Part shown: positions 13,225 to 18,535 of the stretch, one piece after another
How the letters are laid out: each line of letters starts with the position of its first letter
How positions within the stretch are numbered: the first letter of the stretch is position 1
Made by a program: the position numbers and the translations under genes
Notes under the pieces: model-generated
The model's database searches: none
What the model saw: the letters and a program-made list of their open reading frames with translations, nothing else
What the model was told of the DNA's origin: nothing
Origin: Callorhinchus milii
Lineage: Eukaryota
Direction: 5' to 3'
Assembly: GCF_018977255.1 (NCBI RefSeq)
Contig: NW_024704748.1
Span: forward strand, 26,660,001-26,724,000
Length of the DNA stretch: 64,000 nt

Positions 13225-16200
13225 ATGGCTTGGAAAGTGCTCTATTTTGCAAGCCTCGGAATTTTCCTGCAGATGGGTAAGTTTTGTGTGTGTATTTAAA
13301 GCAAACAAGTGTGTAAATGTGTAAATGTGCAATGATGATTCAGTTAAAGTGTGGCTTTGCTCCAGTCTGTTACTTGGGGGTTAGTTCTGGCTGTGAGAGA
13401 GGTGGAGCAGGTGCCTCCAGGGGAGTGCTTGAACAGGTAGAAAACCATCCAAAGTGACTGTGTAGACAGTGGCAATCACTCTGTAAAGCCCAGTTAGCCT
13501 CACAATGGTGATGAGGAAGTCTCTTTTCACTTGAGATCGACTGGTTTGCTGCTGAAGTCTATTTCTTTTTTTAGGATTTAAAAGCAAATAATATCCTATA
13601 AACCAACCCAACCCATTCCTAATTGGGAGGATGAACACTCTCAGTGTGTGGGGCTGGTGAGGGTGCCATGAGCTACAGGGTTTGAGCAGGTTTGAGTTGT
13701 GCTAAGTTAACTTTGGGCAAACATGTGTTAAATTGGTTTCGTTATTGAAGGGAACTACACGTTGAGACTCAGTTTCGTTTATCAGCTTAGTTCCTGTTTG
13801 AATTATTATTATTATATGCATGTATTATGGTTTTTTTTAAAAAAAGAATATTTTCTGGGGAGAACAGGGAGGGAGGGGTGAGGGAAATGTCCTTTTTTCA
13901 CTCTTTTGTGGAACTTACAGCTGATCTGATCCAAACTTTATCCCTATCGTTTATTTTGCTGTGCAAAATCTACAGACAGTTTACAGTGGACCCTGTGAAG
14001 TGCTTTGAGACATCTCAATGACACGATAAGATGCTATATCATACGCAAGGATTATTATTATATTATGTTATCATCCGGTAGGTCAACTCTTTATTGGAAT
14101 TTTGCAAAACCTTCCGTGAAGATGATCCCCTTTCATTTTTGTGACTTAAGTTCGGAATTGTTGAGTTTGAGTTTTACTATTTATTCTTCAGTTCTTTGCG
14201 GGGGGGTCAAAATGGAGGGAGATATTAAATGGACTGCCTCAGAGGTCTGCACTAAGATGTCTACTTAGTAGGAGTCCTGTGGCTCAGTGGTTAGAGCACT
14301 CACCTCACAAGCGAGAGACCTGGGTTCGATTCCCTGCCGGGTGAAACCTTGAGCAAGTTTACTTACTCCACACACACACACCTAATAATAATCCCTCAAG
14401 AAAAAAATAATAATTTGGTCACTCACTTCAATCCACGACTGTTTGTGGGACGCTGCTGTGCGCAATTGGCTGCTGCATTTCGCCCACAGAATACACAGTC
14501 AATTCACTTCACAGTATATTCTGTGCTTTGAGACGTCCTGAAGACGTGATCAAATGCAAGGATTATTATTATTACTGCTCTGTTCGTGCATTGACATTAA
14601 TGACCTAGATTTTCAAACTTAGTGCAAAGTACTTAAACTTGCAGAATGCCCCACATTTGGGGGAAACTGGGATCGAATAACAATAATAATCCTTGCATTT
14701 GATACAGCGCCTTATCACGCGTTCGAGACGTTTCAAAGCGCTTCACAGGATATAATGTGAAGTGAATTCGACTATTTTGTGGGCGAAATGTGGCAGCCAA
14801 TTGTGCACAGCAGCGTCCCACAAACAGCCGTGGGAGAATGAGTGACCATATCATTATTTATTATTTTTATTCTTTTTTTGAAGAGATTATTCGGAAGAGG
14901 TATCAGAGGGTTACACAGAGAGAGCTTGACGGGTTCTGCGCGTGGGCTGATGGCTAGCAAATGCATAGAGAGGAAGTAAAGATAGGAGTAATGCAATACA
15001 GTTTAACTTTTTTTTTGCTAGGCATGTGTATTCCGTGGGTGGGGATAGAACTTGCAAAGGGAAGTTTAACGGTGGCTGGATATTGTTTGTCAAGTTGCTA
15101 AAACTGTGTGAGATAGCCCAGCATCGTGTTCGCTTGGTTTATGGCCATGTTACTAAGCCAATTAAGTCCAGAATCCCAATTCACCTGGGACTACACCTGG
15201 CTACACCTGGCTTACACTCCTTGCCTTAACATAAAAGGGCTTCAAAGCAATGCAGAGGAAAGCAATTAGGATAATCCTCCCCCCCCACCCCCACCACGTT
15301 AGTAAAATTTTAAATGGAATTGAGAAAGTAAACAGAACAATATTTTTCAGATATTCTGTGTCACGGAATCAGGATAACAACGGGCAATTTGAAGGACAGG
15401 AAGCATTTCTCTACCAGTGGGTAATTAACTGGAACAGGTTACCAAGAAGAGTTGAAGCCTCTTCGCTAGATTCATTCAGTAAACTATGTGATGATGCTGT
15501 GATGGGAGGACAGTAAGGTCGATATTCTGGAAGGATGAGATCAAAATGGCTGAAGGGCCTTCTCCATCTGACTCGATCTTGTCGATGGTACGTCTCAGGT
15601 GGTATGGCCACTGCTTCAAGTTCCCACCATCACCCGGGCAGGTGGTCACCAGTGTATGACTCTGTGCAAAGCTCAAAACTCTCGGGGTAAACATTTAGCT
15701 TTGAAGGATCGGATCGATTGTTTCATTTCCAGAGTGTTTGCCTTCCTTCGCTGAAAATAGATCGCGTGAAAAATTGTGGTCGCAGTTCAGATGTCAATTC
15801 ACCTTTTAGTAAAACCCCCCCCCACACCCCACCCACCACCACCACCACCACCCATCCCCCAACTTTTCTTTTGTATCAACGTGCATCACGTGCCCCAAGT
15901 GGGCATTTCCTCCACAGTCAAACCGACTTGTGTCCGAATCGCAAAACAAACCGCTTCTCCCAGTGCAGTCGGGCCAAAGCCTTGCATCACAGTGAGATGT
16001 GTTGCTTCCTGTCTGTCGACAGGATGGCGGACGTTTGTACTGAAACAAACCACCAGATAATTGTAGGGTCTGAGTCACAAGACCGTTTCAGAAGCCAGTT
16101 GAACCTAAAACCTTTAGAGGAAGCACAGCGAGCCCAATAGGTCACGATTTAACGCCAATTCTTGTTACGGCTTTAGCGGCTGATCGTTCCCAGTGTTATT

Positions 16201-18535
16201 CTGGATATCCTAATACAGTTTCTGAAACCGTGAGCTCCGTTTGATTGGAGCTAACGTTGTTGAACATAGAAATTTCAGCCCATCATTTAGGATTTCTTTG
16301 CTCTTTTGACCAATAATGGGGGTTTTTATTGGCTGCCGGGTTTTGCCCACAATCTACACAGTCAATCCACCCGACAGCGTGTTCTGTGAAGGGCTTTGAG
16401 ACGTCTCGACGAGGCGATGAATGCAAGGATTATTGTTATAGTTCTCGGTAAATCTCTTTGGTATTTGTATGATTTAAGTCTCTCTCTAGTTTCACAGGGA
16501 AATATAGCCAAAGCGACCAACTCCGACTCTGGGCTCGTGAACGCCCCCAACCCCGCCCCCACCCAGCACCCCGCCCCCGCCCAGGACCCCGCCCCCACCC
16601 AGCACCCGGCCCCCGCCCAGGACCCCGCCCCCGCCCAGGACCCCGCCCCCGCCCAGGACCCTGCCCCCGCCCAGGACCCTGCCCCCCCAGGACCCTGCCC
16701 CCGCCCAGGACGCTGCCCCCGCCCAGGACCCCGCCCCCGCCCAGGACCCTGCCCCCGCCCAGCACACCGCCCCCGCCCAGCACACCGCCTCCGCCCAGCA
16801 CCCCGCCTCCGCCCAGCACACCGCCTCTGCCCAGCACCCCCCCACCGCCACGCAGGACCCCACCCTGAACCCCGCCCCCGTGCAGGACCCCGCCCCTGTC
16901 CAGGACACCGCCAAGCACCCCGCCCAGCACACTGCCCCCGCCCAGCACCCCGCCCCTGCCCAGGACACCGCCAAGCAACCCGCCCAGCACCCGGCCCCCG
17001 CCCAGCACCCCACCGACACGCAAGATCCCACCCAGAACCCCGCCCCCGCGCAGGACCCCGCCCCAGCGCAGGACCCCGCCCCAGCGCAGGACCCCGCCCC
17101 GCGCAGGACCCGCCCCCGCGCAGGACCCCGCCCCCGCGCAGGACCCCGCCCCCGCGCAGGACCCCGCCCCCGCGCAGGACCCCGCCCCCGCGCAGGACCC
17201 CGCCCCCGCGCAGGAGCCCGCCCCCGCCCAGCACGCCCCGCCCAGCACCCCGCCCAGCACCCCGCCCCCGCGCAGCACCCCGCCCCCGCGCAGCACCCCG
17301 CCCCCGCGCAGGACCCCGCCCCCGCCCAGGACCCCGCCCCCGCCCAGGACCCCGCCCCCGCCCAGGACCCCGCCCCCGCGCAGGACCCCGCCCCCGCGCA
17401 GGACCCCAACCCTGGGCCCCCGAGCGGCCCCACCTCTCGCCCCAGTCTCGCACCCGCCAAGCCTGAAGTTCTCCCAGACTCTGCCCGTGAGGAAGAGGAT
17501 TTGCCGGTGGAGACCCATGAAACCAGCCACTTCTTGACCTATCTCGTGGCCGGCTCGCTGATCCTGGCCGCTCTGTACATTGTGTATCACAGCAAACACA
17601 GGGTAAGCTTACCAACCGCACCTCGCCCCGTCCTCCCAGCATGAAAGGCACTATACACATGTAATCTTTTTCATTCTATTTATATAACGCCTTTCGGGTG
17701 CCTCAGGTCTCAGAGAGCTTTAACGGGAAATAGTTGGATGTCGAACAGGTGGATTTGGGGTGGGGGTATAAGATAAGATTCGAGGCAGGACTTAAGCAGG
17801 GAGGGAGGGTATCGCAAAGGTTAGGGACATAGGAACCTGAGGGCCTGGGGGAGTGCAGCAAGTCTGAGATAATTGAGTGGAGGAGTTGTGTCCAAGGTAA
17901 GGAGGTGCCAGGGATGGATGGATTTGGAGGGAACAGTGAGCAGCTTGAAATCAATCTGCTGGGAACCAACAGAAACTGGTGCGGACTTAAGTGGTGTGGG
18001 TGTACAAAGGAATCTTGTGGTGTGGGTGGGGGTGGGGATACTACTTAAAGCTTATTTATGTCTCACATGGAGTTATACTTGCTCTATACTTATTATTATT
18101 TCACCCACAAAAAAATTTACTCAATTCACTTTACAACAAATTCTGTGGAGCACTTTGAGACGTCTCGAAGACGTGATAAGGCTCTGTATCAAATGCAAAG
18201 ATTATTATTATGATTCACAGACAATTGATGGAGATTATTGATTTGTATATTGCAAATCAATATCAACTGTCATCAGTCATCAATTTCAACTGAGCAATAA
18301 TGCTAAACTCGTAGCTTTTAGCATCAATTACTATAGGATGGAATGAATTTTGAGAGCAATGTACTCATTGACCTGATTTTTTTTCTTCCAGATCATTGCC
18401 TTATGTCACAAGCGCGGACCCAAACAATGTGAGCGCCCAAATAAATCCGACTATATGAAGCTCGATCAGAATTTAAGTGAAGTTATCACCAGCTTGAAAA
18501 AGAAAGTTCGCCATTCCGACCACAAGTTAAAATGA
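13225..18535 (+). CDS. TGOLN2 (TGN38/46) / KCT2 (C5orf15)-family type I transmembrane protein, ~435 aa, apparent frameshifts within its VNTR
   Basis: Exon 1 13225-13276 (AAGATGG start; [24 protein letters not shown]) joins in phase 1 to exon 2 16490-17602 (VSQG-NIAK… completes a signal peptide; AQDPAP repeats; [40 protein letters not shown] segment). Exon 3 18392-18535 encodes [38 protein letters not shown]…*. SHF..YL-TM-YH.K.R.IIA…SDYxxLDQ is the family signature. Exon 2 length is 1 nt out of frame in this assembly. Confidence 0.85.
14271..14574 (+). mobile_element. tRNA-head SINE (dominant family, short form)
   Basis: GGAGTCCTGTGGCTCAGTGGTTAGAGCA…GGTTCGATTCC; core CTGTTTGTGGGACGCTGCTGTGCGCAATTGGCTGC; tail CAAATGCAAGGATTATT. 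Confidence 0.85.
16552..17408 (+). repeat. Coding minisatellite, 18-bp unit GCCCAGGACCCCGCCCCC ([12 protein letters not shown])
   Basis: Dozens of tandem, slightly variant units; long stop-free ORFs on both strands in the ORF track; the minus strand is a series of G-runs (G-quadruplex prone). Confidence 0.95.

Follow-up and report, generated by a model that had tools for sequence, protein, structure and literature searches.

The best-described relatives of the gene treated here are the trans-Golgi network (TGN) proteins of tetrapods, encoded by TGOLN2 and known as TGN38 or TGN46. Rat TGN38 has been shown to reside at steady state in the TGN and to cycle via the cell surface (PMC2119736, PMC2120028). 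An 11-residue segment containing the motif YQRL suffices for both TGN localisation and internalisation, its tyrosine, leucine and arginine being the residues that matter (PMC2119736), the transmembrane (TM) segment holds a second signal (PMC2120028), and in human TGN46 it is the lumenal domain by which cargo is sorted (PMC10928510). In the human genome TGOLN2 comes directly after TCF7L1 (PMC4188067), and the four TCF/LEF genes derive from two rounds of genome doubling, TCF7L1 and TCF7L2 being one clade (PMC9303524). In this study we analyse a TGN38/KCT2-family gene at positions 13225-18535 (+ strand) of a 64,000-nt stretch of the elephant shark Callorhinchus milii genome (assembly GCF_018977255.1, contig NW_024704748.1, positions 26,660,001 to 26,724,000, forward strand). 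This stretch is called the window, its numbering is used throughout, and the gene is called the window gene. A first-pass annotation of this DNA had proposed a third ohnolog of the family lying between NRAP and CASP7. Our analysis indicates that the window gene is a real gene and probably such an ohnolog, a third family copy that has stayed with TCF7L2 in cartilaginous fish.

Kinship of the window gene

The window gene belongs to the TGN38/KCT2 family (PF17818, the Pfam KCT2 family). Its spliced C-terminal protein scores 37.5 bits against a cut-off of 26.2, three orthologs score 43.7-62.7 bits, and all four of the spliced or full-length proteins scanned are thus above the cut-off. Hydropathy and composition give a type I topology with a signal peptide, a low-complexity ectodomain, one TM segment and a short tail carrying a cytoplasmic YxxL motif, YMKL in C. 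milii, where the assembled reading frame is broken as described below. The RefSeq protein XP_007903846.2 ('TGN38-like, partial', C. milii) is the C-terminal 123 residues of the window gene, and XP_067858286.1 ('TGN38-like', Heptranchias perlo) is its shark counterpart. A first homolog search using the end of exon 2 yielded nothing among 34 candidates, a PDB sequence search with the tail gave no match, and a search of the ESM Atlas gave leads at the family level only. A profile search was more productive. Among the best 120 of its 469 matches, which are those listed, the LDQNL tail of the window gene is present in at least 11 sequences, nine from eight shark and ray species and two skate-like, and the remaining 109 have the TGOLN2-type tail IIAF[AVI]LEG, those with species names being tetrapods. 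The orthologs from sharks and rays are full-length proteins with an intact frame, and their ectodomains are Ser/Thr-rich repeats. All eight elasmobranch orthologs examined have a YxxL motif (YQRL in seven, YKLL in one), and in the five elasmobranch species where both genes were found, the ortholog and KCT2 are on contigs of different lengths. Judged from these sequences, the gene is common to the elephant shark, sharks and rays. The ortholog search recovered it in six of the 15 cartilaginous species that yielded KCT2, a recall too weak to show absence from bony vertebrates. Automatic names of the orthologs are inconsistent (TGN38-like, KCT2-like, SPT2 homolog, FLO11-like, uncharacterized), and none is labelled a separate paralog. 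Nor did we find any treatment of the gene as a separate paralog in the literature searched, in which subscription journals are thinly covered. The text and three supplements of PMC9303524 make no mention of TGOLN2 or C5orf15, and the main text of 10.1101/2024.05.23.595469 makes no mention of tgoln2.

Trees of the TM and tail region separate the window gene and its orthologs from both known members of the family. The first tree comprised 29 rows chosen from about 240 matches for taxon spread (7 of the window-gene group, 11 TGOLN2 and 11 KCT2), and it resolves three groups, the window-gene group (97/95), KCT2 (99/96) and TGOLN2 (86/83). A second tree of 22 rows, made after dropping seven rows that included the two longest, gives the same three groups at 100/99, 100/96 and 96/94, respectively. 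Shark KCT2 clusters with bony-vertebrate KCT2 in the first tree (99/96), and an approximately unbiased (AU) test rejects a clade of the window-gene group with shark KCT2 alone (p-AU 0.019). By this evidence the split of the window gene from KCT2 appears to predate the split between sharks and bony fish. Over 57 columns the window-gene group is 46% identical to amniote TGOLN2 and 43-45% identical to KCT2, TGOLN2 and KCT2 are 45% identical to each other, and shark and amniote KCT2 are 79% identical. Majority states are shared by the window gene and TGOLN2 in 7 columns, by the window gene and KCT2 in 6 and by TGOLN2 and KCT2 in 10, so the window gene has no special tie to TGOLN2. Such three-way equidistance favours an old three-way split over plain TGOLN2 orthology.

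The genomic neighbourhood points in the same direction. Four TCF/LEF loci were found in the C. milii assembly. The contig of the window (C7) carries, in this order, a TCF7L2-type gene (26.28-26.40 Mb, top PDB match human TCF7L2), three HABP2-type genes, NRAP, the window gene and CASP7, and C13 carries, again in order, a TCF7-type gene, VDAC and KCT2. C1 has a LEF1-type gene, and a TCF7L1-type gene is on C1175, an unplaced, GC-rich contig of 19,957 bp, which marks its region as poorly assembled. The TCF7, LEF1, HABP2 and NRAP labels are those we assume from motifs and neighbours. The TCF7L1 label is based on features given in PMC9303524. Some 0.3-0.4 Mb separate the window gene from the TCF7L2-type exons found, and some 0.1 Mb separates KCT2 from the TCF7-type gene, so that, with human TGOLN2 used for the TCF7L1 link, each paralog is linked to a different TCF/LEF ohnolog. 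Because the TCF/LEF genes come from genome doublings, a family in which each member has its own TCF/LEF neighbour fits an origin by the same doublings. We take C5orf15, the human KCT2 gene, to lie beside VDAC1 and TCF7. A fused VDAC-KCT2 model in Acipenser sinensis suggests that these two genes are also neighbours in sturgeon.

The separate KCT2 locus that the first-pass annotation wished to see in this genome does exist, as a spliced gene at C13:3.21 Mb on another contig than the window gene. Its intron positions and phases are identical to those of the window gene, which indicates that the window gene arose by duplication at the DNA level rather than as a retrocopy. Two intronless KCT2 retrocopies are also present in the assembly, one at C1:55.79 Mb whose frame is open all the way from its ATG to the stop and one at C4:21.57 Mb with its 5' part missing. 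We propose that the two genome doublings copied a TCF-linked ancestor of the family and that the copies left would be KCT2 by TCF7, TGOLN2 by TCF7L1 and the window gene by TCF7L2, the last being retained by cartilaginous fish and likely lost in the line leading to mammals. Humans, in which we take NRAP and CASP7 to be adjacent, appear to have lost it. The type of event is ordinary, as retention in cartilaginous fish with loss in bony vertebrates is a known class, of which 208 gene families have been counted (PMC8455134).

Gene structure, transcription and reading frame

Inspection of the sequence gives three exons with GT/AG borders, in phases 1 and then 0, all on the + strand. Exon 1 (13225..13276) starts with the ATG at 13225, encodes a hydrophobic stretch predicted to be a signal peptide and ends at a phase-1 GT donor. 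Exon 2 (16490..17602), bounded by AG and GT in phase 0, encodes the end of the signal peptide, a Pro/Ala/Gln repeat ectodomain, the TM segment and the first tail residues, and its 3' end is spliced in runs X1, X2 and X3. Its ectodomain part contains a GC-rich tandem repeat (16540..17410) of mostly 18-bp units encoding (A-Q-D/H-P-A-P)n, which is followed by a predicted TM helix of 19 residues (17531..17587) recognised by hydropathy and by the PF17818 match. Intron 2 (17603..18391, GT..AG, 789 nt) is skipped in contigs of the same three runs and is covered, with no splice joint, in run X7. Exon 3 (18392..18535) encodes the cytoplasmic tail to the TGA and is matched by the C-terminus of XP_007903846.2. 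The tail sequence includes IIALC (22 protein letters of it are not shown here), a cysteine at 18404..18406 that is present in all seven aligned orthologs and is a candidate palmitoylation site, and the tyrosine sorting motif SDYMKL (YxxL) at 18446..18463. The likely 3' untranslated region (18536..19670) has an AATAAA at 19665, and RNA-like contigs extend to 19410 (X2) and 19664 (X1), contig ends being no proof of the true transcript end. The layout of signal peptide, repeat ectodomain, TM segment and tail, and the sorting motif within that tail, are much as the first-pass annotation had described them.

The window gene is transcribed and spliced at intron 2, which answers a check that the same annotation had called for. 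The junction 17602>18392 is present in all three RNA-like runs X1, X2 and X3, which come from two studies, and the intron is mostly uncovered in them. These runs, none of which is recorded as RNA, were classed as RNA-like by guess, and the splicing and the missing intron cover support this class. The first junction, 13276>16490, is suggested by its splice signals and by similar N-termini in two shark orthologs, as the MAW starts of the Heptranchias and Chiloscyllium proteins resemble exon 1 of the window gene.

The claim that the gene is complete did not hold in the assembled sequence. Together the three exons measure 1309 nt (3n+1), and within exon 2 the frame is shifted by four short repeat units that had been overlooked: a 16-nt unit within a C run (16672..16687), two 17-nt units within C runs (17087..17120) and a 14-nt unit (17229..17242). 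The assembled coding sequence is consequently out of frame and reaches a stop upstream of the TM segment. We consider these four breaks likely to be assembly errors, since all of them are confined to C-rich repeat units, the segments in the repeat frame are free of stops and the orthologs are intact. At base 17474 in exon 2, the window has C and all four runs compared have T, which changes one ectodomain residue. Two other database models side with the T of the runs, and a base that disagrees with all of these is a sign of local inaccuracy or polymorphism.

Origin of the gene and its surroundings

The proposal of a third ohnolog, as first put forward, is supported in part. It is supported by the separate KCT2, by the distinct group of the window gene and by the TCF7L2 neighbourhood, while a separate TGOLN2 in the same genome was not found by two protein searches and four neighbourhood scans. 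Likewise, the phylogeny sets the group apart from KCT2 and from tetrapod TGOLN2, but the trees are unrooted and lack an outgroup, a cartilaginous-fish TGOLN2 and a bony-fish member of the window-gene group, so that alone they cannot separate an ohnolog from an ortholog. Several further points count against the interpretation that we prefer. The alignments are short (62-77 columns), both trees carry long-branch warnings, and the gene evolves fast (52% identity between C. milii and elasmobranch orthologs over TM and tail), which weakens the argument from identity. Two tetrapod TGOLN2 queries against the C. milii assembly returned only KCT2, its two retrocopies, the window gene and one chance-level match. 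A profile of 244 family sequences, which recovers both the window gene and KCT2 with E-values no worse than 1e-11, found no match in the 11.5 kb downstream of the TCF7L1-type gene and nothing in 680 kb around ELMOD3, KCMF1, a RETSAT-like gene and one mistaken lead. A PF17818 search of the genome missed the window gene itself and so has too little power to establish an absence of TGOLN2. Moreover, C. milii has the motif YMKL and not YQRL, with a lysine replacing the arginine of TGN38 that is important for TGN localisation. Given the small, unplaced contig on which the TCF7L1-type gene lies, failure to find TGOLN2 may reflect either an assembly gap or reciprocal loss. The latter, a special form of the ohnolog reading, is a possible but lesser account of the data, in which cartilaginous fish have no TGOLN2 and the TCF7L2-linked copy is their sole TGN38-type protein. 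It would mean, equally tentatively, that opposite ohnologs were kept and that all three copies coexist in no single genome, the shark copy being one whose lumenal domain is mucin-like and non-acidic and whose tail cysteine is conserved. The empty searches just described, the exact YQRL of most elasmobranch orthologs and the fact that no cartilaginous-fish TGOLN2 is among the 120 of 469 matches listed speak for such a loss. However, the TCF7L1 region is the poorly assembled one, and no bony-fish, lungfish or coelacanth TGOLN2 is named among those 120 matches either, which suggests that the cut-off hides non-tetrapod TGOLN2. In whale-shark supplements, the TGOLN2 orthogroup has 29 proteins from 26 taxa and that of C5orf15 36 proteins from 28 taxa; their membership may bear on shark TGOLN2.

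Other explanations make different demands on the same evidence. If the window gene were simply the TGOLN2 ortholog, moved in one lineage and fast-evolving in cartilaginous fish, then its RefSeq name, its sharing of IIA and RP with the TGOLN2 tail and its being the only non-KCT2 family gene found in the C. milii assembly would all be accounted for. We regard this as improbable, for the moved gene must have landed beside another TCF/LEF paralog by chance, its shared columns show no excess of TGOLN2 residues, and its KCT2-like tail extension is missing from tetrapod TGOLN2. That extension (LDQN..E...SLK), taken with the common intron phases and the KCT2-like names of several orthologs, might instead suggest a KCT2 duplicate that arose within cartilaginous fish and then moved, but this origin is disfavoured and very unlikely in view of the grouping of shark KCT2 with bony-vertebrate KCT2, the AU test and a TCF7L2 neighbourhood that fits the paralogon. 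A different doubt concerns C. milii itself, where the window gene could be a transcribed pseudogene whose frame breaks are real and from which no membrane protein is made. The out-of-frame coding sequence with its stop before the TM segment, the N-terminal incompleteness of all four database models of the gene and the C. milii branch, the longest in its group (0.79 in the first tree), are compatible with decay. On the other side, the breaks occur only in C-rich repeat units, the TM segment, the tail and the splice sites are undamaged and splicing is seen, the mismatch at base 17474 points to local inaccuracy or polymorphism and the orthologs are intact, so we think a pseudogene unlikely. An ohnolog kept beside TCF7L2 is therefore the reading that we carry forward.

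The position between NRAP and CASP7 agrees with the first-pass description. The first two coding exons of NRAP, which encode a LIM domain, are at 10165..10497 on the - strand with the gene start near 10497, and caspase-7-type exons (PF00656) are at 37810..42587 on the + strand. We assume the NRAP name from an N-terminal motif and from a nebulin-type exon upstream. A 7.1-kb inverted copy, 98.5% identical (33963-41096 vs 46113-53240) and including three caspase-7 exons, represents either a partial duplication of recent date or a haplotype left uncollapsed. Further along the window, a stop-free frame of 151 codons at 59653-60105 (+) looks like protein sequence and has no Pfam match. Upstream on C7, the three HABP2-type protease genes stand in tandem at 26.58-26.62 Mb between TCF7L2 and NRAP. 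Elsewhere in the assembly, the neighbours of TGOLN2 in human 2p11.2 are scattered over four contigs, with KCMF1 at C1:5.61 Mb, 0.58 Mb from the LEF1-type gene, ELMOD3 at C28:3.94 Mb and a RETSAT-like gene at C23:8.14 Mb. The labels of these three genes and of the neighbour TCF7L1 are presumed from motifs. A match at C28:0.31 Mb that had been taken for RETSAT was rejected, as it resembles prenylcysteine oxidase, again by what we take to be its motif.

Predicted function and comparison with TGOLN2 and KCT2

By analogy with its relatives, the product of the window gene is likely a type I membrane protein that cycles between the surface, endosomes and the TGN via its YxxL motif. What is known of the family suggests that the signal peptide would direct the protein to the endoplasmic reticulum, leaving a single membrane span with the tail facing the cytosol. 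The long lumenal domain would be unstructured, Ser/Thr-rich and likely glycosylated in sharks and rays and built of Pro/Ala/Gln repeats in C. milii. YxxL motifs bind the mu subunits of clathrin adaptors, and the tail tyrosine motif would by such binding cause the protein to be endocytosed and brought back to the TGN, as happens with TGN38. Steady-state residence in the TGN is given only about even odds, because of the lysine in the C. milii motif. The conserved tail cysteine may provide a lipid anchor. Since the ectodomain of the window-gene group has no acidic tract, its role in carrying cargo or at the surface likely differs from those of TGOLN2 and KCT2. If the ohnolog reading is correct, what has been treated as a two-gene family gains a third vertebrate subfamily, a set of shark and ray proteins with inconsistent names receives one identity, and the TCF/LEF paralogon gains a small and clean example in the pairs TCF7-KCT2, TCF7L1-TGOLN2 and TCF7L2-window gene. 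As the TGN46 lumenal domain sorts cargo, a paralog that shares the tail signal but differs greatly in its lumen would be a useful comparison. Should reciprocal loss prove true, sharks would offer a natural swap experiment on what secretory cargo sorting needs from the TGN46 lumenal domain.

In comparison with the described members of the family, the window gene combines features of both. With tetrapod TGOLN2 it shares the signal peptide, the repeat-rich lumenal domain, the single TM segment, PF17818, the tail pattern IIA...RP..S(D/E)YxxL and linkage to a TCF/LEF gene. It differs from TGOLN2 in that its group is only 46% identical over the TM and tail, in a conserved tail cysteine and in a tail that extends 15-20 residues beyond the motif. 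The TGOLN2 tail has IIAFxLEG and ends soon after YQRL, whereas the window gene has IIALC and the long extension. Acidic residues in the last 60 of the ectodomain number 3-9 in eight elasmobranch orthologs vs 13-22 in eight TGOLN2 proteins, and the neighbour of the window gene is the TCF7L2-type gene on C7 rather than TCF7L1, which is on C1175. With KCT2 (C5orf15) it shares PF17818, the positions and phases of the two introns and the tail extension LDQN..(E/D)...SLK; a mixture of TGN38-like and KCT2-like tail features had been noted by the first-pass annotation. Unlike a KCT2 ortholog, however, it is 43-45% identical to KCT2 over the TM and tail, does not join shark KCT2 in the AU test (p 0.019), evolves much faster, lies at a locus separate from the true KCT2 beside VDAC and the TCF7-type gene, and lacks the acidic ectodomain tract, which in eight KCT2 proteins amounts to 12-24 acidic residues in the last 60.

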